Assembly (NCBI GenBank): GCA_964538235.1
Contig: CAZIFJ010000002.1
Location: 1 to 51,483, forward strand
Source of the DNA: Candidatus Woesearchaeota archaeon
GTDB lineage: Archaea; Nanobdellota; Nanobdellia; Pacearchaeales; GW2011-AR1
DNA length: 51,483 nt
Direction: 5' to 3'
In this document: piece by piece, positions 4-49,752 of the stretch
Layout of the letters: each line of letters starts with the position of its first letter
How positions within the stretch are numbered: the first letter of the stretch is position 1
Program-made: the position numbers and the translations under genes
The notes under the pieces: model-generated
Database searches by the model: none
What the model saw: the letters and a program-made list of their open reading frames with translations, nothing else
What the model was told of the DNA's origin: nothing

Positions 4-126
4 GTCACAAAACCTGCGGGTTTTAACCCCGCACTAAAGTGCGGGGCTTGTTCGTGGTTTTGTGGCCACCGAGAAATCCGCGACATACAAACCACGGGCT
101 AAAGCCCGCGGATTTAACGAGTGTTA
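4..126 (+). repeat. Type A nested-hairpin mosaic repeat (long form), at the window edge upstream of secF
   Basis: gtcacaaaacc..ggttttgtg outer stem encloses the hairpin ccccgcac-taaa-gtgcgggg. A second unit carries cacgggc-taaa-gcccgcg and ends aacgagtgtta. Collinear with 10308-10436 and the reverse complement of 19111-19197. GC-rich in an AT-rich background. The left boundary may be truncated by the window. Confidence 0.8.
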
Positions 127-153
127 AGAAGACTTTAAGCTTGATAGAATAAA

Positions 154-161
154 TTTAAATA
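154..161 (+). promoter_or_regulatory. Putative archaeal TATA box for secF
   Basis: tttaaata lies 25 nt upstream of the ATG at 186. The same ATTTAAA(C/T) motif recurs at similar spacing before many genes here. Confidence 0.45.
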
Positions 162-185
162 AGATATTTTATTTTAATATTTAAT

Positions 186-1058
186 ATGACTGAGAAAAAT
201 CTTTATGATAAAATTTACAGATGGATTTTGATAGTTCCTGCTTTAGTATTAATTTTTTCAATTTTTCAATTGGTTCAATTCTATAAAATTCATGGAGACA
301 TTATACAAAAAGATGTTTCATTAACTGGTGGAACAACAATAACTGTATTTGAAAAAGATATTTTTGTTAAAGACATTGAAGGAGAAATTAAAAAAGAATT
401 CCCTGATGCTTCTATTAGAGGAATTTCTGATATAAGGACGGGTAAACAAGAAGGATTTTTTGTTGATAGTACTATTGAAGCTCAAGAATTAAAAGAGGGT
501 TTGGAAAAAATTTTGAATTATAAATTAACTAATGAAAATTCTTCAATTGAATTTACGGGGGCGGCCTTGTCTTCTGGATTTTATCAGCAACTACAAAAAG
601 CAGTTTTTTTCGCTTTTCTTTTTATGGCTATTGTTGTGTTTATAACATTTAGAACATTCGTTCCGAGCATTACGGTTATTTTATGTGCTTTTACCGACAT
701 TGTTATGACTATTGCAACTGTTAATTTAATTGGAATGGATATTTCAAGCGCTGGAATTGTTGCATTTTTAATGTTAATAGGATATTCTGTTGATACAGAC
801 ATTTTATTGACAAGCAGGGTTTTGAAAAGAACTGAAGGAAGTGTCAATGAAAAAATATTTGGCGCATTTAAAACTGGAATTACAATGACTTTAACCTCTA
901 TCGTTGCTGTTGGGGCTTCTTTGATTATAATTTATAATTTCTCAGACGCTTTAAGACAAATATTTTCTATTCTTTTAATTGGTTTAGGATTTGACATATT
1001 CAACACTTGGATCACAAACGCATCTATAATAAAATGGTATGTTGAGAGGAAACAATGA
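186..1058 (+). CDS. secF: Protein-export membrane protein SecF
   Basis: 290 aa. N-terminal TM, a periplasmic-type domain, then a multi-TM C-terminal half (FAFLFMAIVVFITFRTF...LMLIGYSVDTDILLTSRVLKR) typical of archaeal SecF. The stop overlaps the secD start (ATGA). Confidence 0.88.
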   Translation: MTEKNLYDKIYRWILIVPALVLIFSIFQLVQFYKIHGDIIQKDVSLTGGTTITVFEKDIFVKDIEGEIKKEFPDASIRGISDIRTGKQEGFFVDSTIEAQELKEGLEKILNYKLTNENSSIEFTGAALSSGFYQQLQKAVFFAFLFMAIVVFITFRTFVPSITVILCAFTDIVMTIATVNLIGMDISSAGIVAFLMLIGYSVDTDILLTSRVLKRTEGSVNEKIFGAFKTGITMTLTSIVAVGASLIIIYNFSDALRQIFSILLIGLGFDIFNTWITNASIIKWYVERKQ

Positions 1059-2698
1059 GGCTTGGATGGAGGTTGTGGTTTCTTGGAATTGTCTTAATAA
1101 TTTCTTTAATTTCAATTTTACATGCTGAATCAACAATAAAATTAATTGTTTTTGTTTTATTAATAGGAATAATTTTATGTATTAATTTTCTGGAAAGCAA
1201 AACAAAATTATTTTTTATATGTTTAATTTTATTTGGATTAGTCATATTTTTAATAGCTAATTCTATTCAAGAAGGAGTTCTTGTGAAATCAGTTGAAAAG
1301 GATTCCCCTGCATTTCTTGAAGGATTAAGAGCAGGAATAATAATAACTGAAATTAATGGAGAAAAAATTTCTAAGATTGAAGATTATATTGATGCCTTTG
1401 ATAAAATTAATTTTGATTCTGAAGAAAAAAGAATTGATATAAAAACTTTGGACAGCGGCTATACTATTTTTGTCAACGAAACTCCAAAAATTTCAGTTGA
1501 AAAAATTTCTAAAACAAATATTAAAACTGGATTGGACTTAAGAGGAGGAGCAAGAGCGTTGGTAAAACCTGAAGCTGAAATTAGCGAACAGCAGTTAATT
1601 GATTTAATTCAAATAAGCAGAAACAGGTTTAATGTTTATGGATTAAGCGATGTTAATATTAGAGGAGTTAAAGATTTGGACGGAAACAAATTTATGCTTG
1701 TTGAAGTTGCAGGGGCTACTCCAACGGACTTGGAAGATTTAATTGCTAAGCAAGGAAAATTTGAAGCTAAAATAGGAAATAAAAGTGTTTTTGTTGGAGG
1801 AGATGAAGATATAAAAGATGTTTGCAGAGGGGATGCAAAATGCTCTGGAATTCAAAGATGCCTCCAAGTTCAAGGAGGATATGCGTGTGAATTTTCATTT
1901 GTAATTTATCTAAAAGAAGAAGCTGCAAAAAAACATGCAGACATTACAAAAAATTTAACTTTGGATTCAACAGGAAGATATTTATCTGAAAAACTTTATC
2001 TTTATGTTGATGATAGTGAAGTTGATTCTCTTTCAATTAGTGTTGGATTAAAAGGGCAAGTTACTACGGAAATTTCTATTCAAGGTTCTGGAACAGGAGA
2101 AAATCAAGAACAAGCTTTGAAAAATGCAAAATCAGAAATGAATAGGTTACAAACAATTATGATTACGGGAAGTTTGCCCTACACTTTAAAAATTGTTAAA
2201 TTAGATACAATTTCTCCTGCTTTAGGGGAGCAATTTGTTTATTTAATTTTACTTGCTGGAGCTGTTTCTTTAATACTTGTTAGTTTAATTATCTTAGTTA
2301 GATATAGAAAAATAAAATCTTCTTTTGCTTTGTTATTTACTTCTTCTTCTGAATTATTAATTATTTTAGGAGTTGCTTCGATTATTAATTGGAATTTAGA
2401 TTTACCTTCGATTGCTGGAATTCTTGCGACAATAGGAACTGGTGTTGACCAACAAATAATTATGTTAGATGAGGCAAGAGAAAACAAAAATTTGGGAATA
2501 AAAGAGAGAATGAAGAGAGCCATGTTTATTATTTTGTCTGCTTACTCTACTGCGCTTGTTTCACTTTTGCCTTTGTTTTGGGCAGGTGCAGGATTGTTTA
2601 AGGGATTTGCTTTGACAACTTTAATTGGAATTTCTGCAGGAGTATTTATAACAAGACCTGCTTTTGCTGAAATAATAAAAAGGATTGAAGAGGAATAA
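1055..2698 (+). CDS. secD: Protein-export membrane protein SecD with extra N-terminal TM segments and a PDZ-like domain
   Basis: 547 aa with the GLDLRGGARALVKPE motif and a C-terminal 6-TM bundle (IAGILATIGTGVDQQIIMLDE). An N-terminal PDZ-like stretch reads VLVKSVEKDSPAFLEGLRAGIIITEINGEKI. Confidence 0.85.
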   Translation: MRLGWRLWFLGIVLIISLISILHAESTIKLIVFVLLIGIILCINFLESKTKLFFICLILFGLVIFLIANSIQEGVLVKSVEKDSPAFLEGLRAGIIITEINGEKISKIEDYIDAFDKINFDSEEKRIDIKTLDSGYTIFVNETPKISVEKISKTNIKTGLDLRGGARALVKPEAEISEQQLIDLIQISRNRFNVYGLSDVNIRGVKDLDGNKFMLVEVAGATPTDLEDLIAKQGKFEAKIGNKSVFVGGDEDIKDVCRGDAKCSGIQRCLQVQGGYACEFSFVIYLKEEAAKKHADITKNLTLDSTGRYLSEKLYLYVDDSEVDSLSISVGLKGQVTTEISIQGSGTGENQEQALKNAKSEMNRLQTIMITGSLPYTLKIVKLDTISPALGEQFVYLILLAGAVSLILVSLIILVRYRKIKSSFALLFTSSSELLIILGVASIINWNLDLPSIAGILATIGTGVDQQIIMLDEARENKNLGIKERMKRAMFIILSAYSTALVSLLPLFWAGAGLFKGFALTTLIGISAGVFITRPAFAEIIKRIEEE

Positions 2699-2751
2699 AA
2701 TATATTTTTGAATATGATTATAATTAAAAAGCAAGTCTATTAAAATATTAT

Positions 2752-3591
2752 ATGATTAAAGGTCTTGTTTTTGGAACTGGCTTTATAGGAACGAGAATTG
2801 CAGAACATAAAGGATATAAAACTATCTCAAGAAGGTATACAAATGTTTTGCAATTAAGAGATTTGGAAAATTTTTTAGAAAATAAAAAACTAGAAGTTGT
2901 TATAAATGCTATTGGAGCAACAGGAAGGCCCAACATTGATTGGTGTGAAGATAACAAAAAAGAAACGTTAGAATCTAATGTTATGGCTGCCCAAAATTTA
3001 GGATTAGTTTGTGCGAAAAATAATATTTATTTTGTTCATTTGGGAAGTGGGTGCATTTATTACGGAGATAATAATGGAAAGGGATTTTCTGAAGATGATG
3101 AGCTGAATTTTTATGGACCGCAATTTTATGCAAAAACAAAAATACTTGCTGAGAAATTCTTAAAAGAAATTCCTTCTTTGATTTTGAGAGTTAGAATGCC
3201 CATTGATGATAGACCGCATGAAAGAAATTTAATTAATAAACTCTCAAAATATTCTAAAGTTATTGACGCACAAAATTCTATGACTACTGTTCCGCATATG
3301 TTGCTGGCTGTTGATAAACTTATTGAAAGAAAAAAACTAGGAATTTATAATTTAGTTAATCCTGGGACGATTTCTGCTTATGAAATTATGGTTATGTATA
3401 AAGAACTAGTTAATCCAAAGCATGAATTCGAGAAATTCTCTATTTCAGAACTTGATAAAAAAACAAAGGGAAAAAGGTCTAATTGTTATTTGAATTCAGA
3501 CAAATTAATTTCTGAAGGAATAAAAATGCCTGAGATTCATCAAGCTGTTGAAGAATGTTTAGAAAAATATAAAGATTATATTCAAAGATAG
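2752..3591 (+). CDS. NDP-4-keto-6-deoxyhexose 3,5-epimerase/4-reductase, NRS/ER-like (takes the RmlD position)
   Basis: 279 aa. Matches motifs I recall from plant NRS/ER and the RHM C-terminal domain: TGRPNIDWCEDNKKETLESNV, GSGCIY, FYAKTKILAEKFLK, LRVRMPI, NSMT, GIYNLVNPG, RSNCYL. First gene of the rml operon. Confidence 0.75.
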   Translation: MIKGLVFGTGFIGTRIAEHKGYKTISRRYTNVLQLRDLENFLENKKLEVVINAIGATGRPNIDWCEDNKKETLESNVMAAQNLGLVCAKNNIYFVHLGSGCIYYGDNNGKGFSEDDELNFYGPQFYAKTKILAEKFLKEIPSLILRVRMPIDDRPHERNLINKLSKYSKVIDAQNSMTTVPHMLLAVDKLIERKKLGIYNLVNPGTISAYEIMVMYKELVNPKHEFEKFSISELDKKTKGKRSNCYLNSDKLISEGIKMPEIHQAVEECLEKYKDYIQR

Positions 3592-3616
3592 ATATTTATT
3601 TAAAAGGAAAATAAAA

Positions 3617-4627
3617 TTGACAATCATGAGAGAAGTCAGAGATTTAATTATTACTGGTGGCTCCGGGTTTATTGGCTCTAATTTTATTCATTATGAACTA
3701 AGTAAATATGGTAATGTTAAAATCACTAATATTGATAAGTTGACATATGCTGGACAAGGAGATAATAATTGTGATATTGAAGGTGATGATAGATACGAAT
3801 TCATTCAAGAGGATATCTGTGATTTTGATCGGATGAAAGAGGTTATTAAGAAAGGCTCAGTAGTCGTTAATTTTGCTGCTGAAACTCATGTGGACAATTC
3901 CATAATAAATCCATTTGTGTTTGAAGAAAGCAATGTTAGAGGGGTATTATCTCTTCTTGAAGCCTCTAAATTAAATGAGGTCGCTTTATTTGTTCAGATT
4001 TCAACCGATGAGGTTTATGGTTCATTGGGTTTTGATGATGCAAGGTCGCTTGAAGGCGATTTGTTAAGACCTTCATCACCTTACAGCGCCTCAAAAGCAA
4101 GTTCTGAACATTTTTGCGTCAGCTATTATAGAACTTTTGGCTTGCCGATTATTATAACAAGGTCATCAAATAATTTTGGGCCATACCAATTTCCTGAGAA
4201 GGTCATTCCATTGTTTGCAACAAATTTTATTAGAGGAAAAAAAGTTCCTCTTTATGGAGATGGAAAAAATATAAGGAATTGGATCTATGTTGAGGATAAT
4301 TGTAGAGCAATTGACAAAATTGTTAGAAGAGGAGGTAGGATTGGGGAGGTTTATAATATTGGTGGTGAAAATGAAATATCTAATATTGAATTAACTAAGA
4401 TAATATTAAGAAAGTTTAATCTTGATGATTCTATGATTGAATATGTTCCAGATAGAAGAGGACATGATAGGAGATACTCCATTGATGATGGAAAAATTAG
4501 GAAAGAGATCAATTGGAAACCTGAATATAAATTTGATGAATCTCTTGATAAAACGATTGAATGGTATAAAGAAAATGAAAAATGGTGGGCACCTTTAAAA
4601 GATAAATCTGGAAAGAGAACAAATTAA
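3617..4627 (+). CDS. rmlB: dTDP-glucose 4,6-dehydratase
   Basis: GGSGFIGSNF Rossmann motif, STDEVYG, YSASKASSEH (YxxxK), RNWIYVEDNCRAI. The ORF-track start is TTG 3617. ATG 3626 (MREVRDL) is an alternative start. Confidence 0.92.
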   Translation: MTIMREVRDLIITGGSGFIGSNFIHYELSKYGNVKITNIDKLTYAGQGDNNCDIEGDDRYEFIQEDICDFDRMKEVIKKGSVVVNFAAETHVDNSIINPFVFEESNVRGVLSLLEASKLNEVALFVQISTDEVYGSLGFDDARSLEGDLLRPSSPYSASKASSEHFCVSYYRTFGLPIIITRSSNNFGPYQFPEKVIPLFATNFIRGKKVPLYGDGKNIRNWIYVEDNCRAIDKIVRRGGRIGEVYNIGGENEISNIELTKIILRKFNLDDSMIEYVPDRRGHDRRYSIDDGKIRKEINWKPEYKFDESLDKTIEWYKENEKWWAPLKDKSGKRTN

Positions 4628-5494
4628 ATGAAAGGAATAATTTTAGCTGGAGGAAAGGCAACAAGACTTGAGCCAGTAACAACGACAATAAGCAAGCAAA
4701 TTATACCGATTTATGATAAACCTATGATTTATTATCCTCTTTCAGCTTTAATGTTGGGAGAGATAAAAGATATTCTTATAATTTCTACTCCAGAACATTT
4801 ATGGTTTTTTGAGAGACAATTGGGTGATGGAAAAAAATTTGGAATGAATTTTTCTTATGCTCAACAAGAAAAACCTAAGGGGCTTGCTGACGCGTTCATT
4901 GTAGGAGAAGATTTCGTCGGAAAAGATAACTGCTGTTTAATTTTAGGAGATAATATATTTTATGGACATGATTTACCAAAAATTTTGAAAGAAGCAAGAA
5001 AAAAAGAAAATGGTGCTACAATTTTTGGATATGAAGTTCAAGATCCACAAAGATATGGAATTGTAGAATTTGATAAAAAGAATAGGGTTGTTTCAATAGA
5101 AGAAAAACCTAAAAATCCAAAATCAAATTATGCTGTTGTTGGATTATATTTTTATGATAATAAAGTTATAGAAATTGCAAAGTCATTAACTCCTTCTCAA
5201 AGAGGAGAGCTAGAGATAACAGATGTTAATAAAAGATATTTAGAACTTGGGGAGCTCGAGGTTAAAATTATGGGAAGAGGATTTGCTTGGCTTGACACCG
5301 GAACTTTTGATTCTCTTTATGATGCTAGCACTTTTGTTAAAGTTTTACAAACTAGACAGGGAAATAAAATTTCTTGTATTGAAGAAATTGCTTATAATCA
5401 GGGTTTTATTAATAAAGAACAATTAAGAATACTTGCTAAACCTTTGAAAAATTCCGATTATGGAGAATACTTATTAAGATTAGCTAAAGAATAA
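4628..5494 (+). CDS. rmlA: Glucose-1-phosphate thymidylyltransferase
   Basis: [39 protein letters not shown] is the canonical RmlA N-terminus. Also [24 protein letters not shown]. It starts immediately after the rmlB stop. Confidence 0.93.
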
Positions 5495-5524
5495 ACTTTT
5501 AAATATGAAAAATTAAAATAAGAT

Positions 5525-5971
5525 ATGTTACCGCGATGGCACATTTTATTTGGAGCAATTTTTACTTTTATTTTATACTATTTCAGTCCTAGAACTCCAA
5601 AATTATTTCTTTTTTTAGTTTTCTTTGCATCTTTTTTAATTGACTTTGACCATTATATTTGCGCTGTGTTAAAGACTGGAAGAATAAGTTTATTTGATGC
5701 TTTTGATTATCATAAAGAAATGTTAAAAAAAGAAGAACAGGAAATTAAAAAGAGAATTAGAAGAAAGGGAGACGATTTTCACTTTTTTCATACAATAGAA
5801 TTTCATATTTTAATTGCAATACTTGGAATTTATTGGATAGAATTTTTTTATATTTTTATAGGTATGATTTTTCATTCTTTGCTTGACGTATGTTCTTCAT
5901 TATATACAGAAAGGTTTCATAGGAGAGAATATTTCTTTTTTAATTGGGTTGGGAGGAAATTATTTAAATGA
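5525..5971 (+). CDS. Small integral membrane protein, possibly a DUF457/YdjM-like membrane hydrolase fold
   Basis: 148 aa with about 4 hydrophobic segments and a histidine-rich pattern (HILFG, DFDHY, FHFFH, FHSLLD). The family assignment is tentative. Confidence 0.45.
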   Translation: MLPRWHILFGAIFTFILYYFSPRTPKLFLFLVFFASFLIDFDHYICAVLKTGRISLFDAFDYHKEMLKKEEQEIKKRIRRKGDDFHFFHTIEFHILIAILGIYWIEFFYIFIGMIFHSLLDVCSSLYTERFHRREYFFFNWVGRKLFK

Positions 5972-6726: not shown

Positions 6727-6760
6727 TTAAATTTATAAAGTGCTACTTTATAGTAATTAT

Positions 6761-8454: not shown

Positions 8455-8531
8455 TATATAAATTTCTCTTTTTTTAATCTACTTAATATAATTTATAGAT
8501 AGTTATTTAAAATTATAATTGATATTATTAA

Positions 8532-10343
8532 ATGGTAGAAAATAATTCTTTTTTAGATAAGGTGCTTAACAATTTTATAAATTTTATTTATTCTCCTTCT
8601 AAAAAATATGAAAGAATATTAATTTTTTTAGTAATTATAGGTTTTATTTTAAGACTTGCGGCTGCCCTTAATTTAGATGTGCTTGCCGATGATATGGTTT
8701 ATGCTTCTCAAAGTGCAGGAATATTAGATGCAAAAGTTTTGTCTACTCACTCAAATCCTCCACTATTTTTCTATCTAACAGATATAGCTTATCAAATATT
8801 TGGATACACCACATTTGCTTCTAGATTTTGGCCTCTTATTTATGGAACTATGCTAATTATTATTGTTTTTTTAATTGGTAAATTTTTCTTTGATGAGAAA
8901 ACAGGACTCGCGGCTGCTTTTTTTGCAACTTTCTCTAATTTTTTGGTAAGAATGACTTTTACTGAGGCGGCCCTTATTGTTTTCTTTTTCTGTTTTCTTG
9001 GGGCTTATTTTGGTTTGATTTATTTAAAGAAAAGAGAGTTGAAGTGGCTTGTTTTGTCAGGGGTTGTTTTTGGCCTTGGATTGCTGACTAAATACAATAC
9101 TCCTTTCTTTATTATGTCTTTCTTGGTTTACTCTGCTTATTTTATTAAATCTAAAAAAGAAATTGTTTTTAGTAAAAATAATATAAAAAATTTATTTATT
9201 TTCATTAGTATTTTATTTTTATTTGCTTTGCCTTTCTTATCTTTTAATTATTTATTATATAAAGATAAGGGGATAGTTGATGTCTATTTTAGCAGAATAA
9301 TAAACTTAGAAAAAACTCAAGAACTTTATGGTGGGCTGGCTGGACAAGGAAATAGCTTCTTTGATAATTTATTAAATATAAAAAATTATGGAAATTATTC
9401 TTTGTTATATCATACAGATATAGTCATATTAATTTTTTCTTTATTTGGAATATTTTTATGGATTAAAGATAAAAGAAAGCATGAGCTTGTTTTTTTTATT
9501 ATATTTTTAGTTATTCCATTTGTTTTGCAAAGTGCTGGATCCCCTTTACAAAAACACTTTTCTTTTATGATAATATTATTTTCTTTACCAGCCGGATATA
9601 GTATTAATTTTATATTTGAAAAGATTTCTAGTTGGAAAATGATTTTTCTTATTGCTATTCTACTTTCTGCTTTTCTAATTTATAATCTAAATATTGCTTA
9701 TGGAACTCCACAAAACTATTTTTCTAAAAGTCCTACTTCACAATTGAAAAGTTGGATAAATAGTAATGTAGAAGAAAACAGTCTTATAGTTTTTGATTCA
9801 AGAATATATCCTGCAAGATCTATTTGGGCAGCAACACCTAAAAATTTTCTTTTATTAGATCAATTCTTTTCTTTCTATGAAATAAATCAAAATATTAGTT
9901 CTGAAAAAATACCAACAAAAATTCATATTGTAGAATGTGCTATTGATGATTGTGGCTTAGGATGGGTAAAAGACAACTCTGAATTTAATATTTCTTCTGA
10001 AAATGTTTTAAATGTTTTAAAAAATAATTCAAATTTGGAAGAAATTATTTATTTAAAGCAGAAAAATGAAGGTAAGGAAGAAATATATAGATTATATAAT
10101 ATAAATATCCCAATTCATCCTTCGCTTTTAGAACAGACTAAATTAATACAACAGTTCTATTTCACACCCTATCTATATAAAAATATGAATAATTATATTT
10201 TCTCTTTAAGTGATAAAAATATAATTATCAAAGATTTATCTCTACTAATAATTTATTTATCTATTTTCTTAACTTTTATATTTTTAGTATATTCCTCTCT
10301 TATAATTATCACAAAACCCTTCGGGTTTTCTACTCCACACTAA
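8532..10343 (+). CDS. GT-C fold membrane glycosyltransferase (ArnT/PMT, GT39/GT83-like)
   Basis: 603 aa. More than 10 TM helices in the N-terminal 400 aa with an early acidic loop (LDVLADDMVYAS), followed by a soluble C-terminal domain. The last 11 codons and the TAA stop lie inside repeat 10308-10436. Confidence 0.7.
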   Translation: MVENNSFLDKVLNNFINFIYSPSKKYERILIFLVIIGFILRLAAALNLDVLADDMVYASQSAGILDAKVLSTHSNPPLFFYLTDIAYQIFGYTTFASRFWPLIYGTMLIIIVFLIGKFFFDEKTGLAAAFFATFSNFLVRMTFTEAALIVFFFCFLGAYFGLIYLKKRELKWLVLSGVVFGLGLLTKYNTPFFIMSFLVYSAYFIKSKKEIVFSKNNIKNLFIFISILFLFALPFLSFNYLLYKDKGIVDVYFSRIINLEKTQELYGGLAGQGNSFFDNLLNIKNYGNYSLLYHTDIVILIFSLFGIFLWIKDKRKHELVFFIIFLVIPFVLQSAGSPLQKHFSFMIILFSLPAGYSINFIFEKISSWKMIFLIAILLSAFLIYNLNIAYGTPQNYFSKSPTSQLKSWINSNVEENSLIVFDSRIYPARSIWAATPKNFLLLDQFFSFYEINQNISSEKIPTKIHIVECAIDDCGLGWVKDNSEFNISSENVLNVLKNNSNLEEIIYLKQKNEGKEEIYRLYNINIPIHPSLLEQTKLIQQFYFTPYLYKNMNNYIFSLSDKNIIIKDLSLLIIYLSIFLTFIFLVYSSLIIITKPFGFSTPH

Positions 10344-10436
10344 AGTGTGGAGTTTGTTCGTGGTTTTGTGATTACCGTGGAAAATCGACAGGAATACAAC
10401 TCCAATCTAAAGATTGGAGATTTTCAACGAGTATTA
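10308..10436 (+). repeat. Type A nested-hairpin mosaic repeat (long form)
   Basis: atcacaaaacc..ggttttgtg encloses ctccacac-taaa-gtgtggag. The second unit carries ctccaatc-taaa-gattggag and ends aacgagtatta. Collinear with 4-126, with different but still complementary stems. Confidence 0.85.
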
Positions 10437-10449
10437 ATTAATTAATATA

Positions 10450-10456
10450 TTTAAAC
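10450..10456 (+). promoter_or_regulatory. Putative TATA box for the flippase gene
   Basis: atatttaaac ends 20 nt upstream of ATG 10476 and lies directly downstream of the repeat. Confidence 0.45.
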
Positions 10457-10475
10457 TCATATTTCATATTATATA

Positions 10476-17240: not shown

Positions 17241-17417
17241 ATCAAAAAAACAATGTGCCACCACACCTTAAAAGGGGTGGTTTGATTGGCGCTTGTTTTT
17301 TGGATGCATGAAAAATCTTTTATGGATTTTTCTGCACAGAGAATTGCCCTCGTCAGCAATTCTCTTGTGCTCACGGCACGCCTCGCCTTAAAAGGCGAGG
17401 TTTTCACGTGCTGTGAC
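17241..17417 (+). repeat. Type B nested-hairpin mosaic repeat, long form (177 nt, four hairpins)
   Basis: atcaaaaaaa terminus. Unit caatgtgcca-ccacacc-ttaaaa-ggggtgg-tttgat-tggcgcttg, then linker ttttttggatgc. A 63-nt extra block follows with the hairpins gaaaaatc/gatttttc and cacagagaattgc/gcaattctcttgtg. Then unit cacggcacg-cctcgcc-ttaaaa-ggcgagg-ttttca-cgtgctgtg, ending gac(at). Apart from the 63-nt block it is the reverse complement of 25411-25524. Confidence 0.85.
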
Positions 17418-17433
17418 ATAACCAAAAACATCT

Positions 17434-19110: not shown

Positions 19111-19197
19111 TAACGCTCGTTAAATCCGTGGGCTTTTAGCCTGTGGTTTGTTCGCCGCGGATTTCTCGGCTGCCACAAAACCCACAGGTTTTGTGAC
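19111..19197 (-). repeat. Type A repeat, short form (87 nt, lacks the inner hairpin of unit 1), inverted relative to 4-126
   Basis: The reverse complement reads gtcacaaaacc-tgtg-ggttttgtg-gcagccgagaaatccgcggcgaacaaac-cacaggc-taaaa-gcccacgg-atttaacgagcgtta. It lies between divergent gene starts 19083(-) and 19242(+). Confidence 0.8.
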
Positions 19198-25206: not shown

Positions 25207-25314
25207 TTCTTTCTAAATATTATTGTTTTTTAAACATTTCTATTTTTTTAACTTTAGAGTTAATAATAAATATGTGAATGATATAATTTAACTCTCTTTA
25301 ATGTTACAATGCAA

Positions 25315-25789
25315 AGTAGTAATGTAATAAAAGTTGACGAAGCAATCAAGATAGAATCCCTAAAAGTAGAATTATTTGGAACTGGAAAGGCTTCAAGAAA
25401 ATCTCTTTATGTCACAGCACGTGAAAACCTCGCCTTTTAAGGCGAGGCGTGCCGTGAGCATCCAAAAAACAAGTGCCAATCAAACCACACCTTAAAAGGT
25501 GTGGTGGCACATTGTTTTTTTGATATTAAAGATGCTGCAAGGGAGTGTTATTCTTGCACTAAAAAATTATAAAAAATCTGAGCCGATTAATTTAGGTTTA
25601 GGAGAAGAAATAACTATCTGCGCACTTGCTCAAAAAATAAAAGAATTCATGAAATTTAATGGAAAGATTATTAGGGATACAATGAAACCAGAAGGTCCTT
25701 TGAGAAGATGTTTAGATAATACAAGGGCAAAAAAAGATATAGGATTTAAACCACGTATTAAACTAGAAGAGGTCTTAGAGAAACAGTAA
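25315..25789 (+). pseudogene. 5'-truncated, repeat-interrupted and frameshifted remnant of a second GDP-fucose synthase (fcl paralog)
   Basis: Frame 1 reads SNVIKVDEAIKIESLKVELFGTGKASRKSLYV, then the 114-nt repeat, then DIKDAAR. Homology then continues in another frame as GSVILALKNY...KPEGPLRRCLDNTRAKKDIGFKP. All of this is collinear with residues about 190-305 of the intact fcl (SHVIPSLIKKFDEA..IEIWGGGNVSREFLYVEDAAKGIILAIKNY..KPEGQLRRCLDSTKCIKKIGFSP). Confidence 0.8.
25411..25524 (-). repeat. Type B nested-hairpin mosaic repeat, short form (114 nt), inserted in the fcl pseudogene
   Basis: gtcacagcacg-tgaaaa-cctcgcc-ttttaa-ggcgagg-cgtgccgtg, agcatccaaaaaa, caagtgcca-atcaaa-ccacacc-ttaaaa-ggtgtgg-tggcacattg, tttttttgat. 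It is the reverse complement of 17241-17417 minus the 63-nt block. Confidence 0.88.
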
Positions 25790-25804
25790 AATGGTATTTA
25801 GAAA

Positions 25805-25918
25805 ATCAAAAAGTCTTTGCGTTTACTCCACACTAAAGTGTGGAGTTTGTTCGAGACTTTTGGATGCTCAAGATTCAACTCCATGCTAAAGCATGGAGTT
25901 TTAGTCAAGAATCTTGAC
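25805..25918 (+). repeat. Type C nested-hairpin mosaic repeat (114 nt)
   Basis: atcaaaaagtct-ttgcgtttac-tccacac-taaa-gtgtgga-gtttgttcg-agacttt, linker tggatgctc, then aagattc-aa-ctccatgc-taaa-gcatggag-ttttagtca-agaatctt-gac. It shares termini and linker with types B and D. 25824-25853 is identical to 10331-10360. Confidence 0.85.
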
Positions 25919-25970
25919 ATAAAGAAAAATTATAGATGATTTTATAACAATTTTAGTTTGGATACTAAGA

Positions 25971-26061
25971 GAAATTCTTTGAATTTCGATGTGCTCAGGA
26001 ATTTTATTCCTGACATGCTCAAGAACCAACACGCCAGTCACTTCAGTGGCTGGTTCTTGAC
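25971..26061 (+). repeat. Related three-hairpin array joined by GA(T/C)(G/A)TGCTC linkers
   Basis: gaaattc-ttt-gaatttc, gatgtgctc; tcaggaa-tttta-ttcctga, catgctc; aagaacc-aacacg-ccagtcac-ttca-gtggctgg-ttctt-gac. It ends 10 nt before the TATA box of the next gene. The left boundary is uncertain. Confidence 0.65.
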
Positions 26062-26070
26062 AGAACATTA

Positions 26071-26078
26071 TTTAAATA
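26071..26078 (+). promoter_or_regulatory. Putative TATA box
   Basis: tttaaata lies 20 nt upstream of ATG 26098. Confidence 0.45.
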
Positions 26079-26097
26079 ACTTTTCTGTTTTTATTTT

Positions 26098-27322: not shown

Positions 27323-28081
27323 TTACTTTTCTAAATATTTAGTTTCGTCTTTTTGATTAGTCCAATAAAATCCTTCTTGTCTTAGTCTACATGACAGGCA
27401 AGTTCCGCAATGTATTGAATTTGAAGTGTAACAAGAGAATGTTTTTTTTAGAGGAACTTTCAACTTTAAAGCCAAATTAATAATATCTTCCTTATCTTTT
27501 TTTATTAATGGTGTGAGAATTTTTGGTTTTGAAATTGTTGAAATTGAATTTAATTTATTCATTTGATTTACATATTCTTTAGTTGTATCTGGATAAAATT
27601 CTTTTCCTTCATTTTTAAAACCGACAAAAATATCGCATTTTGTTTTATTTTTTTTATGCCAAGATGATTTGAGATCATCTTGGACATCCAAAACTCCAAA
27701 CAAATCGCGGACTTTTAGAAATTCTGACTCTGCCAAAGTCGTCGCATAATTTAAGAAAATTGTATTTCTTAATGGAACATACCATCTCAAACTTTCATTT
27801 TTTGTGTCTTTCAAATCTTTTTTTGTTAATTTATTGTACGATTTTTGGTTGTTTGTTAAATTAGATGAGAAATTTTTTAACCATTTAAGATCTACTTCTA
27901 AAAATTTTGCTCTTATTTCTCTTGCGCAAAATTTTGAAGCTTTTCTTTCTGCTTTAATAGCTCTTTGTCCATAATTAAAAAATAAAATTTCCAAATTGTT
28001 ATAATTTAATTTATTTTTTACATAATAAGCAGTTGTTACACTATCTATTCCTCCTGAACATAAAATTATTGCCGATTTCAT
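27323..28081 (-). CDS. queC: 7-cyano-7-deazaguanine synthase (archaeosine/queuosine precursor pathway)
   Basis: MKSAIILCSGGIDSVT PP-loop and the C-terminal zinc motif CYTSNSIHCGTCLSCRLRQEGF. Confidence 0.85.
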   Translation of the reverse strand: MKSAIILCSGGIDSVTTAYYVKNKLNYNNLEILFFNYGQRAIKAERKASKFCAREIRAKFLEVDLKWLKNFSSNLTNNQKSYNKLTKKDLKDTKNESLRWYVPLRNTIFLNYATTLAESEFLKVRDLFGVLDVQDDLKSSWHKKNKTKCDIFVGFKNEGKEFYPDTTKEYVNQMNKLNSISTISKPKILTPLIKKDKEDIINLALKLKVPLKKTFSCYTSNSIHCGTCLSCRLRQEGFYWTNQKDETKYLEK

Positions 28082-40965: not shown

Positions 40966-41049
40966 TTAAAAGGTTAATTAGATCTATATAAAAAATTATT
41001 GTCAGTTAAGATTAGCTGAGAATCTTAATGAAAAATATAAAAATATAAG

Positions 41050-41409: not shown

Positions 41410-41493
41410 AAAGATTCAATAAGGTTTCTAATTAAAAAGATTATTATCTTGAAAAATAGATATTAAGGCTATAACTTTATATGACTATGTTTT

Positions 41494-43481: not shown

Positions 43482-43482
43482 T

Positions 43483-44484: not shown

Positions 44485-47345
44485 CTTGCAACATTTAAAA
44501 TTTTATTTGGAAAATCTAGATTTAGATATTCTTGATTTACTTTCATGTTTCTTGGATATTTAATCTCCCAAATTCTTATTGGACCTCTAAGACCTTCATA
44601 AAATATAATATCTTTACTAAATCCTTGTTGTTGACTTTTTATCTGTTCTACTAGAAAATCATCTTCTGAATGAACAAGTTTAAAGTTTGGATTGTTTTCC
44701 TTATAAAGATATAATCTTACTAATTGTGACTTTACTGTTCTGTTTGATAAATAAATCATTGCTCCATCTGAATCTAATTGACCATTTTGATAAACTCTCG
44801 GGAAGATATAAACTCCTGCTTCAATTCCTGACTTGAAGTCAATAAATTCTTTTTCAAAAGCATATCTTATAGGAACTTGATACTGTTTGCCCTGATAAAT
44901 AACAATTGCTATTGGATTTGAAGAAATGTTTCCTGAAGAATCTTTTTCTATCAAAATTCCGCCAACACCTGCCTTTCCTCCAGGAAGAAATATTTTTGTT
45001 TCATTTTGTTTGTAAGTTATATCTTCGTCGAGGGAAAATCCAGCGGGATATAAATAAATTGTTGAATTTTTTGTTTCTCTTACTTGTTGAGTATCTTTTA
45101 TTAAATTGGGAAGATAACTCACTCTATCATAATTTTCATCTGAACCAATAGAAGAAAAGGCCGAATATTTTCCAATGTCTGTTGAATCTATTAAAAAATG
45201 TGTTGTATTATGAGAGTATAAAAATTCTAAAGCATTTTGATTATCTGGACCAGTTAAAGCATGTCTTCCCATTAAATGATTCCAATATGTTATTGCATTT
45301 CCTCCGTCAAGAACTGTTGCTCTTTCTCCAATACTTTGAATCCAATATCCGTAATCCCACCAGTGACCAAAAACTGCATTTTGAGGAGTATTATCCCTCA
45401 CCCAAGACATTCCTTTTTGCCATTGCTGTGTGTAAATACTTGGAGCGTAATATTGAGCTTGCGTGCTTGTAACTTGATAATAAATTAATCCTGAATAAAG
45501 TGTTGATAGAAATATTATAACTGCAAATAAATAAATAAATATTTTATATGAACTCTCTCTTGAATTTATTGCCTTATTTGAAATTGAAACTACAAAATAA
45601 GAAACTAAAATTGAAACTGGTAGGACTAAAACCATAATTAATCTAACTGCCCCCCTTGCTGAAACTATTGCAATAAAAAACAAGATAAACAAAGAAATTA
45701 ATCCTGCTTCTAATTTTAAAAAATCCGATTCTTTATTTTCTTTATAATGAGAAAAATAATAATAGCCACAAGTATAAATAAAAATTAATAAACCTGAAGA
45801 ATAAAGTGCGATGCTTAATGGGCTTGTCCCATTAAGAGGGCTTTCGGGAGACAATCTTCCGAAAATCATTGAAAATAAAAATATAGAATAAGCTAAAGTG
45901 AGATAAATTTTTTCTTTTTTATTTTCTAAGAAATGAATGAGATTATAAAATAAATAAATTGAGCCAAAAATAAAAAGCCAGAGTAATATTGGTATATTTT
46001 TATTAAATATTGTCTTTACTGGACCGAAATCGGAAGACCACTCAGAAAAATATGGTTGACGATTTTCAGCTACTGTAACTCCTAATCTAGATGTTATTGG
46101 TTGAATTAAAGGTTGTAGTATTGAGCTAATTTCATTTGGAATAAAACTTGGACCAAAGAAAAGAGTAGCTAAAATTGCTCCTAAAATTATTGTTATAATA
46201 AATGCTATTAATGATTTTGGAATTTTATTTGTTAATTGAAAATCAAAATATTTTTTATCTTTTATTAAATAATAGATAAAAGCTGAAAAAATTGCTAGTG
46301 CTGGAATTAAAAATATTGTTGAAGATAAAAGGACTGATAATTTATATCTTGTTGAAAATGGAGTCATAAAAGCAAATGAAAAAACAAGCCATAAAAGAGA
46401 AACTAAAATTTTATTTTTATCTAGTTGTCCTAAGAAATAAGAAACAAATATTGTTAAACCGATAGTAAAGAATAGAAAAGCATAACCTCCCCAGACTAAA
46501 GCCATCATTGCTGTTGAAATACCTGCTAAAATTGAGACTAAAACTCTTTGAAATTTATTTCCAGATTTCCATGCATAGATAAAAAAGTATAATCCTAAAA
46601 ACATAAAGAAAAATGCTGCTGATTCTTTTTCAGGAATTCCTGCTATTGTTCTCGGCATTAAAGAAGGTATTACGACTAAAAAGAAAGATGAAATTAAAGC
46701 AATTATATTTGCTTGATTTTTTCCTGAGATTTCATAAAATATTATTCTTGTAAAAAGAAAAAACGAGATCACTGTTAAAGCAAACATAAAAACTGGGAAG
46801 AGTGCGGCTGATTGTTCTACTGATGTGCTTCCAAAAAATATTGCAATTTTATGAAACCATGCAATTAAATAAGGAAGGAAAATTAATTCTGCTTTTGTGT
46901 CAAATCCTAAGGGAACATATCGAAGAGTATCATTAACAAAAAGCGAGCCGTTCTCAACTATATATTTTGCCCAACGCAAGAATAAAAATGGGTCTAAATC
47001 TGGGCCTAATGTCCAACCATTTGTTGTAATGTCTCTTAATCTTGAAATATTACTTGACCTTATTTTTACTGATAAAAAAACAAGCCAGGCTAAAATTGTG
47101 TAAAAAGAAAAATTTAATTTATTGTCATAAGAAAAAAAAGCTGAAAGGAAAAATGCGAAAGATAATAAAATAAGAAGGTCTTTGCTAAAAAATCCTAAAA
47201 ATGGAATTGTAATTTTTATTAGAGCGAAGACATATGTCATTAAAAAAATTAGGCCTAAAATTAAAAATGAAGAAAAAAATTTGTCTTTTTTTAGCAAATT
47301 AATTATTTTTTGTTTTCTTTCCTCTATTAATCTATCCTCATCCAT
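44481..47345 (-). CDS. aglB: Archaeal oligosaccharyltransferase AglB (STT3 homolog)
   Basis: 954 aa with 13 or more TM helices, followed by HWWDYGYWIQSIG (WWDYG catalytic motif) and a large soluble C-terminal domain. Confidence 0.92.
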   Translation of the reverse strand: MDEDRLIEERKQKIINLLKKDKFFSSFLILGLIFLMTYVFALIKITIPFLGFFSKDLLILLSFAFFLSAFFSYDNKLNFSFYTILAWLVFLSVKIRSSNISRLRDITTNGWTLGPDLDPFLFLRWAKYIVENGSLFVNDTLRYVPLGFDTKAELIFLPYLIAWFHKIAIFFGSTSVEQSAALFPVFMFALTVISFFLFTRIIFYEISGKNQANIIALISSFFLVVIPSLMPRTIAGIPEKESAAFFFMFLGLYFFIYAWKSGNKFQRVLVSILAGISTAMMALVWGGYAFLFFTIGLTIFVSYFLGQLDKNKILVSLLWLVFSFAFMTPFSTRYKLSVLLSSTIFLIPALAIFSAFIYYLIKDKKYFDFQLTNKIPKSLIAFIITIILGAILATLFFGPSFIPNEISSILQPLIQPITSRLGVTVAENRQPYFSEWSSDFGPVKTIFNKNIPILLWLFIFGSIYLFYNLIHFLENKKEKIYLTLAYSIFLFSMIFGRLSPESPLNGTSPLSIALYSSGLLIFIYTCGYYYFSHYKENKESDFLKLEAGLISLFILFFIAIVSARGAVRLIMVLVLPVSILVSYFVVSISNKAINSRESSYKIFIYLFAVIIFLSTLYSGLIYYQVTSTQAQYYAPSIYTQQWQKGMSWVRDNTPQNAVFGHWWDYGYWIQSIGERATVLDGGNAITYWNHLMGRHALTGPDNQNALEFLYSHNTTHFLIDSTDIGKYSAFSSIGSDENYDRVSYLPNLIKDTQQVRETKNSTIYLYPAGFSLDEDITYKQNETKIFLPGGKAGVGGILIEKDSSGNISSNPIAIVIYQGKQYQVPIRYAFEKEFIDFKSGIEAGVYIFPRVYQNGQLDSDGAMIYLSNRTVKSQLVRLYLYKENNPNFKLVHSEDDFLVEQIKSQQQGFSKDIIFYEGLRGPIRIWEIKYPRNMKVNQEYLNLDFPNKILNVAR

Positions 47346-47382
47346 GATATTAAGGAAAAAACTAAGTATATAAAGTTTTCAA

Positions 47383-48240
47383 CTAAAAGATTACCGGCGT
47401 TATGTAAACTTCTATTAAGGCTGCTATGAATAAAACTCCTATGGATATAACTATCAAATTTAAAGAATCTTGGACGACTTCCCAAAATTTTGCAGAGCCG
47501 GTTTCATGACGGATAATTGCTATTGAGACCATTCCGCCTGCAAGAGCTACAATAAAGTAAGAGCCTATTTCTGGAATTCCGTGTATCATATATTTCAAAA
47601 CACCTAAAGGCAATGCGCTTATTTCTGAATCGGCAAAAATTCCAACTGCGGCTGCGATGACGCTTGCGTTCCAAGCTAAAATAAAAATTACTCCTGCTCC
47701 AAAAATTAAAGAAAATATTAAAGTAAAAACTAAAACATAAATATTATTAGAAAATATTGCAAACAATCTTCCTTGTCCAGTTGCATTTCCTGTTGGAGAA
47801 TTTGTAACTTTTAATCCGTGTTCTTTTACACAACTATCTATTGAAGAAGGTCTGTTAATTGCGCAATAAGTTTCTACTTGTGCTCTGAAACCTTGCTCTG
47901 ATGGAATTGTAATATACCAAAAAGAAAAAGCTACAACAAATCCTAAAAAAAGCCATAAAAAAACAGAAATTGCTTTTTTATGATGCCTTAACAAATCCAT
48001 TGTTTTTAGCCCCTTGATTGTTTCTTTCTCCTCTAACTTTATTGTATAATAAACAAATGGCATTGAAAACATAACAGTAAATGTAACGATTAAAATTCCC
48101 GAGTATTTTGATAAAACAATGTCTTTAGAAAAAATCCAATTAACTAAAAGAAACGCTAAACTTGCATAAAACAACCCAACAAAAAACATTTCCCAGGGAT
48201 GCCTTTCAGCTTTTTTAGGGTTCATTAACATTTCTAACAT
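47383..48240 (-). CDS. SpoIIM-like (DUF95) integral membrane protein
   Basis: 6 TM helices. YMIHGIPEIGSYFIVALAGG resembles the conserved SpoIIM-family helix. Confidence 0.6.
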   Translation of the reverse strand: MLEMLMNPKKAERHPWEMFFVGLFYASLAFLLVNWIFSKDIVLSKYSGILIVTFTVMFSMPFVYYTIKLEEKETIKGLKTMDLLRHHKKAISVFLWLFLGFVVAFSFWYITIPSEQGFRAQVETYCAINRPSSIDSCVKEHGLKVTNSPTGNATGQGRLFAIFSNNIYVLVFTLIFSLIFGAGVIFILAWNASVIAAAVGIFADSEISALPLGVLKYMIHGIPEIGSYFIVALAGGMVSIAIIRHETGSAKFWEVVQDSLNLIVISIGVLFIAALIEVYITPVIF

Positions 48241-48364
48241 TTTAATTTAATCCTTCCTTTTTTAAAAAATTTTCTATGAATAAACTCATATTATAAATTG
48301 TAAAAAAGAACTTATTTAAACTTAACTAAAATTTTCTGCTCTATTGAAAAGAGTTAAAGAAATT

Positions 48365-48970
48365 TTACTGAATTTTCCAAACTTGTAACTCTTCCATAAA
48401 AATTTTCTTTTTTGAAATAATTATTTTTTTTAGTTTTTGTTTTTTTAGTTCGGTAAGAATTCTCTTTTTTGGTGTTAGAGAAGATAATAAAAGAAGAATT
48501 ATTCCTTTTTTTAGCAAATATGATTTTACGTTTTTTAAAAATCTCAAAATTATTTCATCACCTTTTTTTCCTCCTGTTGTAATTAATTTACTTTCAGAGT
48601 CTTCTAATGAATCTTCTGGAAGATAAGGAGGATTAAAAATAATTAAATTAAACTTTCCTTTTATTTTTGAAAACAAATCTGATTTTATCACATTGTAATT
48701 TTTTGATGTCGAAGTGCTTGACAAACCTCGCACTTTAGTGCGAGGAGCACTTCGAGCATCCAAAAGTCCACGAAAAGGACTTTTTGATTTGAGAAATATA
48801 ATTGAATCATCATCTATATCCGAGGATAAAACTGATTTTGCTCCGAATTTTATCGCGACTTCTGTTTGAATTCCCGATCCTGCTCCTAAATCAAGAACTA
48901 TTTTTCCTTTTGCGAATTTTTTTACACATTCTTCTAAAAGATAAGAATCTTCTGATGGAGAGTAAATCAT
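48365..48970 (-). CDS. Archaeal HemK-related / Mtq2-like N5-glutamine methyltransferase carrying an in-frame repeat insertion
   Basis: IYSPSEDSYLL, VLDLGAGSGI, SSDID, IIFNPPYLP (NPPY). Residues 61-88 (KSKSPFRGLLDARSAPRTKVRGLSSTST) are encoded by repeat 48708-48788. Confidence 0.78.
   Translation of the reverse strand: MIYSPSEDSYLLEECVKKFAKGKIVLDLGAGSGIQTEVAIKFGAKSVLSSDIDDDSIIFLKSKSPFRGLLDARSAPRTKVRGLSSTSTSKNYNVIKSDLFSKIKGKFNLIIFNPPYLPEDSLEDSESKLITTGGKKGDEIILRFLKNVKSYLLKKGIILLLLSSLTPKKRILTELKKQKLKKIIISKKKIFMEELQVWKIQ
48708..48788 (-). repeat. Type D nested-hairpin repeat (81 nt) inside the methyltransferase CDS
   Basis: gtc-gaagtgct-tgacaaa-cctcgcac-ttta-gtgcgagg-agcacttc-gagcatcc-aaaagtcc-acgaaaa-ggactttt-tgat. 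48706-48788 is the exact reverse complement of 49423-49505. Confidence 0.9.
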
Positions 48971-49752
48971 ATTTTATTTTCTCTTATAAATTTAGATAAA
49001 ATTATTGACAAATATGGCGGGATAAATATTAAAGATATTATTTCATAAAAAGATTCTGGAAGAAATAATATGATTTCATTAAAAATAAAAAAGGCTAATA
49101 AAATTACCCCAACAGAAATATAATTATTTTTTACAAAATTAAAACTTTTTATTAATCCTTCTTTAAAGCTTAAATTAAAGATAATAAAATAAAAATTTGT
49201 AAAGGCTAAAAATATTATAAACCCAAATAAACCAATAAAATAAAAAATTAAAAATAAAATTTTTGCAGAATTTTCTGGAAGAGAAAAAATTCCGCCTATA
49301 AAAAAAGTTAAGTGAAAAGAAAGATAATTTACAATATTATAAAATACTAAAAATAGAAGAATAAAAAAGAAATTTTTCATAAAAAATTTATTTGCCTCTT
49401 TGAAAAAAAATTTCATTTTATTATCAAAAAGTCCTTTTCGTGGACTTTTGGATGCTCGAAGTGCTCCTCGCACTAAAGTGCGAGGTTTGTCAAGCACTTC
49501 GACATTATTTGAATTTTTTCCTGAAAGAGAGATAAGGCCTGCAAAAAAATAAGAAATAAGAAGTAAATTTCCTAGTGAGAAAATTACAAGCCAAGAGCTT
49601 ATTAAAAACCCTGATTTAAAAGATTGATTAATTTCTATTGAAACAGATGAAAAAATCGTGAGTAAAAAAAATAAAGTTGTACTTGGAATTATTAAATAAA
49701 AATTTTTATAAAAATAATAAAGAGATTCTCTGAAAAGATTAATTAAATCCAT
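48967..49752 (-). CDS. Polytopic membrane protein of unknown function carrying an in-frame repeat insertion
   Basis: 261 aa with about 6 TM helices. Codons 84-110 (VEVLDKPRTLVRGALRASKSPRKGLFD) are encoded exactly by repeat 49423-49503. Confidence 0.55.
   Translation of the reverse strand: MDLINLFRESLYYFYKNFYLIIPSTTLFFLLTIFSSVSIEINQSFKSGFLISSWLVIFSLGNLLLISYFFAGLISLSGKNSNNVEVLDKPRTLVRGALRASKSPRKGLFDNKMKFFFKEANKFFMKNFFFILLFLVFYNIVNYLSFHLTFFIGGIFSLPENSAKILFLIFYFIGLFGFIIFLAFTNFYFIIFNLSFKEGLIKSFNFVKNNYISVGVILLAFFIFNEIILFLPESFYEIISLIFIPPYLSIILSKFIRENKI
49423..49503 (+). repeat. Type D nested-hairpin repeat (81 nt) inside the membrane-protein CDS
   Basis: atcaaaaagtcc-ttttcgt-ggactttt-ggatgctc-gaagtgct-cctcgcac-taaa-gtgcgagg-tttgtca-agcacttc-gac. 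It is an inverted, identical copy of 48708-48788. Confidence 0.9.

Follow-up and report, generated by a model that had tools for sequence, protein, structure and literature searches.

In insertion sequences of the IS200/IS605 family and in repetitive extragenic palindromes (REPs) served by RAYT transposases, an HUH enzyme of the Y1 type acts at the replication fork on folded single strands. Neither ISDra2, which inserts 3′ of TTGAT, nor IS608, which inserts 3′ of TTAC, duplicates its target (PMC8612924). REPs measure 20-40 nt, carry a GTAG or CGTC tag and have been reported from bacterial phyla only (PMC3733652), and the miniature transposable elements with inverted repeats (MITEs) of one Woesearchaeal genome (105 per Mb) have been counted, not described, in a census (PMC11602168). 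Here we describe a modular repeat of nested hairpins from 51,483 nt of a Candidatus Woesearchaeota archaeon (GenBank contig CAZIFJ010000002.1, positions 1 to 51,483; hereafter the window), which carries at least ten copies of it, types A to D among them. The repeats make up one family of mobile DNA, small and non-autonomous, whose members have reached new sites both between and inside genes, and which have so far been found only in DPANN archaea (Pacearchaeota, Woesearchaeota and Nanoarchaeota).

Anatomy, covariation and mobility of the element

The anatomy was deduced from an alignment of 24 distinct copies, an RNAalifold consensus and column conservation in the model alignment; the covariance model, R1, was built from 24 copies. 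The strand reading 5′-ATCAAAAA...GACAT-3′ is referred to as the F orientation. In its core form the element spans approximately 112-124 nt and reads AT-hairpin 1-AT-GC-hairpin 2-C-AT, each hairpin possessing a nested pair of stems, the outer variable and the inner G+C-rich, an A/T loop and an internal loop that is one-sided, T-rich and conserved. Hairpin 1 comprises CAAAAA plus the variable outer stem, an A, the inner stem CCNNNNC, a loop of TAAA or TTAAAA, GNNNNGG, an unpaired loop led by TTTG, the outer stem again and TTTTGG. Hairpin 2 runs from TC plus its outer stem through the inner stem and loop to GG, an unpaired TTTT(A/C)GTCA, the returning outer stem and GA. The base of both hairpins is TCAA...TTGA, and since ATCAAAAA pairs with TTTTGGAT, hairpin 1 reaches the very terminus. 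Symmetry between the termini is confined to 4-5 nt (TCAA/TTGA), with each end pairing inside its own hairpin; the element is without terminal inverted repeats, and hairpins occupy both of its ends.

The stems are kept by selection on structure, as the initial annotation had suggested from their covarying sequences, and the covariation is strong. Among 28 distinct copies from many genomes, aligned to the model, standard pairs fill 98.1% of the cells versus 76.9% in column shuffles and 34-45% with slid partners. Compensatory changes on both sides are found at 26 of the 38 pairs, in a total of 237 cells where 72 are expected. On four of the five covariation measures the shuffles never reach the observed values; the fifth (further standard pair types) is reached in 118 of 500. 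This alignment had been fitted to the model, and an independent analysis with MAFFT and RNAalifold finds 24 of the 38 pairs compensated. Compensation can be seen even within one genome, for instance AAAAGCACG/CGTGCTTT versus AAAAAAACG/CGTTTTTT. As single-stranded DNA, every copy in the window folds with a z score between -3.9 and -9.2, and none of 200 shuffles folds as well. The family is also a sizeable natural source of covariation data on a DNA hairpin presumably recognized by protein.

Mobility, which had been considered probable, is borne out by orthologues that lack the insertions, by identical copies and by lineage-specific bursts. Copy D1 (48706-48788, minus strand; 83 nt, type D, 74.9 bits with R1), in which hairpin 1 is short, sits in frame within a HemK-like methyltransferase gene (48365-48970), and nine methyltransferase orthologues lack exactly its 27 codons in an alignment that is otherwise continuous. 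Copy D2 (49423-49505, plus strand; 83 nt, type D, z -7.7) is in frame within the neighboring membrane-protein gene (48967-49752); it is 100% identical to D1 over the 83 nt and inverted, and the corresponding segment is absent from orthologues of the membrane protein. In 200 kb from 21 relatives, syntenic with the right end of the window, R1 finds just two weak matches. By comparison, it returns 48 matches, twelve of them with identical scores, within the 230 kb examined of the Pacearchaeota metagenome-assembled genome (MAG) VGKP01. A 23-mer typical of a single subfamily occurs 36 times in that MAG, nine times in JBBTBG01 and six times in JBBSYO01. Within the window, B1 and B2 (described below) are 93-100% identical, and the type A copies are 78-88% identical among themselves.

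Two observations concern the D copies. The predicted peptide encoded by D1 within the methyltransferase includes, for example, LLDARSAPRTKVRG. The two copies, separated by 634 nt, stand on either side of the point where two genes of the same strand meet (48788-49423), and recombination between them would invert the segment; gene order and orientation are as in orthologous loci, from which it follows that no inversion has occurred.

More than 150 further copies were recovered, all of those with known taxonomy coming from Pacearchaeota, Woesearchaeota or Nanoarchaeota MAGs. A pattern scan of the genome collection yielded 120 matches, the 27 with full architecture being all from MAGs of these three groups, and a metagenome scan added approximately 85 loci to give 110 distinct insertions in total. 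Carriage by viruses was rejected, as none of the 78 pattern matches among viral contigs (IMG/VR) has the structure of the element. Spread to another domain appears unlikely as well: the copies filed under “Liptonbacteria” (VGJV01000002; L388 1-7974 and L376 1-503) lie on DNA that is 100% identical to Pacearchaeota VGKP01 contigs (L386, L373), the same DNA thus appearing in MAGs of two different domains, apparently as a binning artefact. DPANN genomes, of about 1 Mb, are usually called streamlined; yet there are ten selfish copies in a 51-kb window and 48 matches in 230 kb of VGKP01.

The element also limits the contiguity of DPANN MAGs, because contigs break inside copies: an SRR8863434 contig (L122) ends at window position 49476, within D2, and VGKP01 contigs 16, 22, 24 and 31 start or end in copies. 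In public annotation, intergenic copies are called as hypothetical proteins of 40-68 aa, such as FJZ18_03070 and FJZ18_01640 of VGKP01. These calls are spurious; an ATG stands at the start of the reverse strand, which in some copies has an open frame. The family therefore bears on DPANN genome evolution, on assembly, on binning (a Pacearchaeota contig under a bacterial MAG) and on annotation (the 40-68-aa “hypothetical proteins”).

Copies in the window and inside genes

Nine copies had been listed in the initial annotation, and all are present within a few bases of where they were placed; a tenth, decayed copy is added here. The single architecture that had been ascribed to all of them holds for types B, C and D, and type A proves to be only a cousin. 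R1 matches B2, C, D1, D2 and B1 at E = 1e-15 to 1e-26, in addition to finding many further DPANN copies. Types B, C and D share the termini ATGTC...TTTTTGAT, the linker TTTTGGATGCTC, the TAAA/TTAAAA caps and the one-sided T-rich internal loops, all as first described, and in type D hairpin 1 is an outer stem alone. Type A is a related but distinct mosaic, to which R1 gives 28-35 bits (E 1e-4 to 1e-6): its outer stems differ from those of the core, its second module is inverted, and it has 29 identical nt in common with copy C in the inner part of hairpin 1. Modules have been shuffled or recombined between copies. In VGKP01, two types of hairpin 1 and two of hairpin 2 are joined in each of the four possible ways, and extra TCAAGAAT...ATTCTTGA mini-hairpins are also inserted at several positions.

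Two copies in the window are full 116-nt two-hairpin elements. Copy C (25805-25920, plus strand) is intergenic and scores 120.4 bits (E 2e-26; z -8.15). Copy B2 (25409-25524, minus strand; 119.6 bits, E 3e-26; z -9.2) splits a decayed GDP-fucose-synthase-like fragment, 25309-25800, whose reading frame it disrupts and into which it brings a stop. This fragment is the remnant of a GDP-L-fucose-synthase-like epimerase, of which the C-terminal half alone is left, and an apparent further frameshift is located near 25770 (...KLEE, then GLRETVKWYLEN in another frame). Copy B1 (17241-17419, in F orientation on the plus strand; 72 bits) carries in its linker some 64 extra nt, which make up two mini-hairpins (~17308-17371). 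Downstream of copy C is an array of three hairpin-2-type modules (25971-26065, plus strand; z -6.5), each of the form GCTC-stem...stem-GACAT/GACAG, missing the usual inner stem and joined to the next by GA(C/T)(A/G)TGCTC.

The window has three type A copies. A1 (1-126, plus strand; 28 bits, z -4.25) is cut by the start of the window and consists of a hairpin-1-like module, CACAAAACC...GGTTTTGTG, followed by the inverted second module. A2 (10308-10436, plus strand; 35 bits, E 2e-6; z -5.4) has a first module bounded by AT...AT, and its inner stem is the same as in copy C. A PMT-like open reading frame (ORF; 8532-10343) has its stop codon within A2, the last ~11 residues being encoded by the repeat. 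A3 (19111-19197, minus strand; z -3.9) is reversed, and its first hairpin is truncated. The tenth copy (27656-27728, minus strand; 29 bits, E 6e-5; z -4.4) lies in frame in the QueC gene (27323-28081, minus strand). QueC, aligned in two stretches, shows ~24-26 residues beyond those of solved QueC proteins, exactly at the model match.

D1, D2 and the QueC copy are thus three window copies in frame inside genes. Over the 110 insertions, seven copies lie within long open frames, and hosts elsewhere include a GyrB mini-intein, the linker of an E2 acyltransferase and a protein-isoaspartate methyltransferase (PIMT). The GyrB gene (L038 449-2941; JBBTAL010000076, a Nanoarchaeota MAG) holds the mini-intein CFSGETEV...VHN/S, which in turn carries a 116-nt copy in frame, so that one mobile element is nested in another within an essential gene. 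All copies in long ORFs are stop-free and add a whole number of codons. Because only 25 of 150 reading frames of the element are open, such copies are survivors rather than a designed coding feature. A designed coding capacity was rejected on the same count, and a profile of the most open frame, searched against 5.8 billion proteins, retrieved only nine spurious ORFs of 40-68 aa.

Counted with both ATs, the length of the element is 2 mod 3 in 63 of the 110 copies, which corresponds to a net length divisible by three (3n). Stems and loops change in steps of two, and a periodicity of three is therefore not built in. Should one AT be part of the target, the majority of elements would add whole codons. 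Copies borne by genes would survive only when they add a whole number of stop-free codons, and such survival might account for the predominance of net 3n lengths; tentatively, such lengths would suit genomes so poor in non-coding DNA. With the in-frame copies, including that in the GyrB intein, and the 3n excess, it becomes possible to test whether mobile DNA adapts to extreme coding density.

The window, with a G+C content of 24-33% against which the hairpin repeats are comparatively GC-rich, encompasses an island for protein glycosylation, with genes for SecD/F, epimerases and dehydratases of sugar nucleotides, many glycosyltransferases, flippases and STT3/AglB. Also encoded are QueC, the HemK-like methyltransferase and an RNase J-like protein with 65-82% identity to counterparts in Pacearchaeota MAGs; the host of the window is itself a member of the Pacearchaeota. 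No tRNA was detected in a tRNA scan of the window. Contigs identical to it are present in European Nucleotide Archive (ENA) assembly ERZ27284378 and in SRR8863434.

Insertion sites and the mechanism of movement

AT bounds every copy on both sides. After GACAT (109 insertions), the flank has A or C at +1 in 86% and A at +2 in 95%, and is A-rich from +4 to +6; in the left flank the enrichment in A is weak. On the opposite strand, GTC...TTTTTGAT sits immediately 3′ of T-N-A-T (T at -4 in 95%, AT invariant), with TGAT as the element's own end. A single AT is shared between the members of head-to-tail tandems (L027, L084, L267), as is expected if the end of a resident copy serves as target. The empty site of D1 can be reconstructed as CTCAA-ATCAAAAA-ATTAC, encoding LKSKN as in orthologues; D2 has only AT in common with its flanks, and among the collected loci there are no empty sites at the DNA level. 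The initial annotation saw no consistent target-site duplication; a consistent junction does exist (AT...AT, with T-N-A-T as target). Inspection by eye revealed no association between the loop base and flank base +1, and a guide-like pairing of the 5′ end with the hairpin-1 loop was rejected, the matching TCTGAT being found in just one of four ATCAGAAA variants.

The orientation of copies relative to flanking genes is random (16/14/13/12; in VGKP01, 31 neighbors on the same strand versus 40 on the opposite), which argues that the element has no role tied to transcription. Along the contigs of VGKP01 the orientation is coherent, with 6/6, 9/9, 4/4 and 4/5 copies pointing the same way and one contig mixed. 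Neighboring pairs there agree in 24 of 29 cases (~3e-4 under a coin flip), and the genes are strand-balanced.

The most probable explanation, in our view, is that of a non-autonomous element which moves as single-stranded DNA and is handled by an HUH/Y1 enzyme in the manner of IS200/IS605 or REP/RAYT. The logic of these systems is suggested by the lack of terminal inverted repeats, the compensated hairpins at the ends, the unpaired motifs, a one-sided T-rich target resembling the other end of the element, the tandems and the strand coherence. The element would be mobilized as a folded single strand, with a hairpin-recognizing HUH/Y1-type enzyme acting in trans, as in the “peel and paste” of IS200/IS605 or in REP/RAYT, and the GTC...TTTTTGAT strand would integrate immediately 3′ of T-N-A-T. 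By virtue of its own TGAT end, a resident copy would offer a target, giving rise to head-to-tail tandems that share one AT. Compensatory change would preserve the stems since the enzyme presumably reads shape together with the conserved unpaired T-rich motifs, and insertion tied to one replication strand would explain a constant orientation over tens of kb.

The enzyme was sought in several ways. Consistent with the earlier statement that the window has no transposase, none of its 50 ORFs scanned is a transposase or recombinase. In six-frame ORFs from ~1.5 Mb around the copies, hidden Markov model (HMM) and phmmer searches gave two results only: an IS605 in L243 and, where a VGKP01 contig begins (VGKP01000006), a Y1 fragment of 63 residues. 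The former, the only full pair of tnpA and tnpB, was discarded since its locus has no significant model match and is apparently bacterial. The latter belongs to a small IS200-type family of Pacearchaeota, Micrarchaeota and Diapherotrites, with members at L394 964-1537 (the same as L396 485-1060), at L392 ~2290-2841 and, as a fragment, at L362 1-230. The full element, seen in two copies, is 574 nt long and encodes nothing besides a 146-aa Y1 TnpA. Its ends are TCTGTT...AATACC-CCGCAG-CTTG-CTGCGGGG and ...CCGCAG-CTTG-CTGCGGAG-AGGTTCAC; the end hairpins have CCNNNNGG or CCGCAG stems and a (T)CTTG loop, and the right end is TTCAC. The motif of this IS200-type element is absent from the window. Its ORF is called from an internal ATG (101-111 aa) in the databases, where members are mostly fragments on short contigs, and in L392 a tRNA-like gene, recognized by eye, lies on the minus strand at 1975-2045, ~250 nt upstream of the left end. 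A general Y1 search recovered Sulfolobales and Helicobacter relatives only, and phmmer with an approximate E. coli RAYT query found no match in 1.0 million residues of ORFs around the copies. Autonomous versions of the repeat were likewise rejected, as ORFs between paired copies are ordinary genes and VGKP01 has no lone hairpin-1 start or hairpin-2 end beside a gene.

Several points weigh against handling by an HUH/Y1 enzyme or against particular steps of it. No Y1 transposase, TnpB or RAYT was found beside any element in the ~1.5 Mb searched. The DPANN IS200-type element can be dismissed as the parent, as its hairpins (loop CTTG/TCTTG) and ends (TCTGTT...TTCAC) differ from those of the repeat, and membership in a specific IS200/IS605 lineage is not established, the only Y1 family found having other ends. 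The cleavage points would fall in paired stem bases, unlike those of IS608. Mismatches (13 G:T versus 8 A:C) favor neither strand, so that there is no strand asymmetry, and the bases shared between internal loop and termini are invariant, which leaves covariation uninformative as to a link between them. AT on both sides fits equally well with a duplication of 2 bp of target or with a dinucleotide shared at crossover. In VGKP01 the orientation of copies follows local GC skew (r = -0.56, the GTC...TGAT strand being G-rich), a skew that is confounded with coding strand. Orientations in the window are mixed (neighbors four same, four different), and the identical D1 and D2 are inverted at a distance of 634 nt. 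As to the lengths, the 70 clusters divide 37, 19 and 14, with net 3n the class of 37 and kinship ignored.

The other explanations are taken in descending order of probability. It is possible, though we hold it as a tentative alternative, that the repeats represent a DPANN class of hairpin modules with an enzyme that is not a recognizable TnpA or RAYT, maybe a host-encoded or divergent hairpin nuclease for single-stranded DNA. Modules would recombine freely, and lengths would be tuned to 3n for insertion into coding sequence, in genomes that leave next to no room between genes. Were this so, the class would keep supplying essential proteins with peptide insertions.

A conventional cut-and-paste MITE, mobilized by a DDE transposase such as an IS630/Tc1-like enzyme, is unlikely. 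The AT on both flanks of every copy would then be a 2-bp target-site duplication, and TCAA...TTGA, found at both hairpin bases, would be minimal terminal inverted repeats. IS630 and Tc1 elements, by comparison, target TA rather than AT. The terminal inverted repeats of ~10-30 bp, with target-site duplication, that define MITEs of this type are matched here by an identity of just 4-5 nt, and each end is one half of its own hairpin. Binding to duplex ends would leave the compensatory changes in all four helices unexplained, orientation that is coherent across tens of kb would be unexpected, and no DDE transposase is seen in the window. The census of the Woesearchaeal genome, which required inverted repeats and duplications and arrived at 105 MITEs per Mb (PMC11602168), is in its favor.

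We regard it as rather improbable that the copies are folded sites for a tyrosine recombinase, comparable to integron attC, or for a serine recombinase as in IS607, with AT as the crossover dinucleotide of circle and target. In attC sites, too, structure and short base motifs are conserved and the stems covary. By our own comparison, the hairpin-2 base GCTCAAG...CTTGA resembles RYYYAAC...GTTRRRY at six of seven positions; the tandem junction GAC-AT-CAAAAA is as would be expected of a circle junction, and the element's left end, ATCA, has a likeness in the right flank, AT(A/C)A. However, copies are dispersed in both orientations, some inside ORFs, rather than forming cassette arrays beside an integrase, their unpaired parts are one-sided loops of 7-10 nt and not single extrahelical bases, and no recombinase gene is found in the window.

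It appears very improbable that the repeats form a structured-RNA family (genes for small RNAs, or hairpins serving in cis as terminators or stabilizers), selected at the RNA level and repeated only secondarily, even though the covariation is very strong, T runs follow the hairpins on one strand and REPs of bacteria have known roles as RNA elements (PMC3733652). A search of the entire window against Rfam at gathering thresholds gave zero matches, in line with the check proposed at the outset, and a permissive search of 25380-26090 (E up to 10) nothing meaningful, the best weak scores being 15-18 bits versus thresholds of 39-100. Orientation to flanking genes is random, the element is missing from syntenic loci of 21 relatives, identical copies reside in coding sequences in both orientations, and G:U and A:C counts show no preference for an RNA strand. 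An H/ACA-like reading, prompted by the ACA after each hairpin, was rejected on inspection, the internal loop being one-sided and without K-turn or K-loop.

Finally, it is scarcely credible that the in-gene copies are bulge-helix-bulge or self-splicing introns removed from the mRNA, highly structured as they are and present in essential genes (gyrB, queC), since most copies are intergenic, no bulge-helix-bulge motif could be drawn at the junctions on inspection, and those in long ORFs all comprise whole, stop-free codons although so few frames are open; as splicing would impose no constraint on frame, this points to translation and survivorship instead.

Comparison with known repeat systems

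The initial annotation likened the repeats to REP/BIME mosaics, Rickettsia palindromic elements (RPEs) and archaeal MITEs and could assign them to no described family; this agrees with our findings, as Rfam and text searches (conserved motifs, DPANN repeats) gave no match to one. The palindrome-associated transposable elements (PATEs) of IS200/IS605 resemble the DPANN repeat in being ~100-200 nt long, in having an imperfect hairpin at each end and no terminal inverted repeats, in their short T-rich target (TTGAT for ISDra2 and TTAC for IS608, T-N-A-T here), which the element's own end resembles, and in a strand-coherent orientation, here seen in one well-sampled genome (VGKP01). In contrast, no cognate tnpA with matching ends was found for the repeat, orientation in the window is mixed, and the hairpins, which reach the termini, are nested, have large one-sided loops and are unlike each other.

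With REP, BIME and REPIN sequences and their RAYTs the repeat shares short palindromes, a conserved tag at the stem base, stems that vary between genomes, mosaics and arrays, high copy number and occasional residence in genes, and REPs are mobilized by an enzyme encoded elsewhere. It differs in its tags (TCAA...TTGA, ATCAAAAA, GCTC, GACAT), in nested units of 40-60 nt and in its archaeal hosts, and no RAYT-like ORF was detected around the DPANN copies. RPEs are likewise palindromic repeats of ~100-150 nt in a small, A+T-rich, reduced genome, with in-frame copies in apparently functional genes. Their sequences and hosts are unrelated, however, and stem covariation such as that described here is not known in them; in the DPANN family only some 5% of copies are in genes, where the added peptide is predicted from sequence.

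The BOX elements of pneumococcus are modular as well (boxA, a variable number of boxB, boxC) and form stable hairpins with no transposase identified, but they are unrelated in sequence, belong to a bacterial host and are intergenic. Integron attC sites have hairpins of conserved structure with unpaired bases, short motifs and covarying stems, and are read as folded single strands, as the repeat presumably would be. Whereas attC sites border the cassettes of ordered arrays that adjoin an integrase gene, the repeat is dispersed, has two hairpins and is associated with no cassette. The family would give a search for a new DNA enzyme specific to hairpins a clear target. Its behavior mixes features of PATEs, REP/BIME, RPEs and BOX while its sequence carries the defining feature of none of them, and it may be viewed as an archaeal counterpart to REP/RAYT and the Rickettsia palindromic elements.

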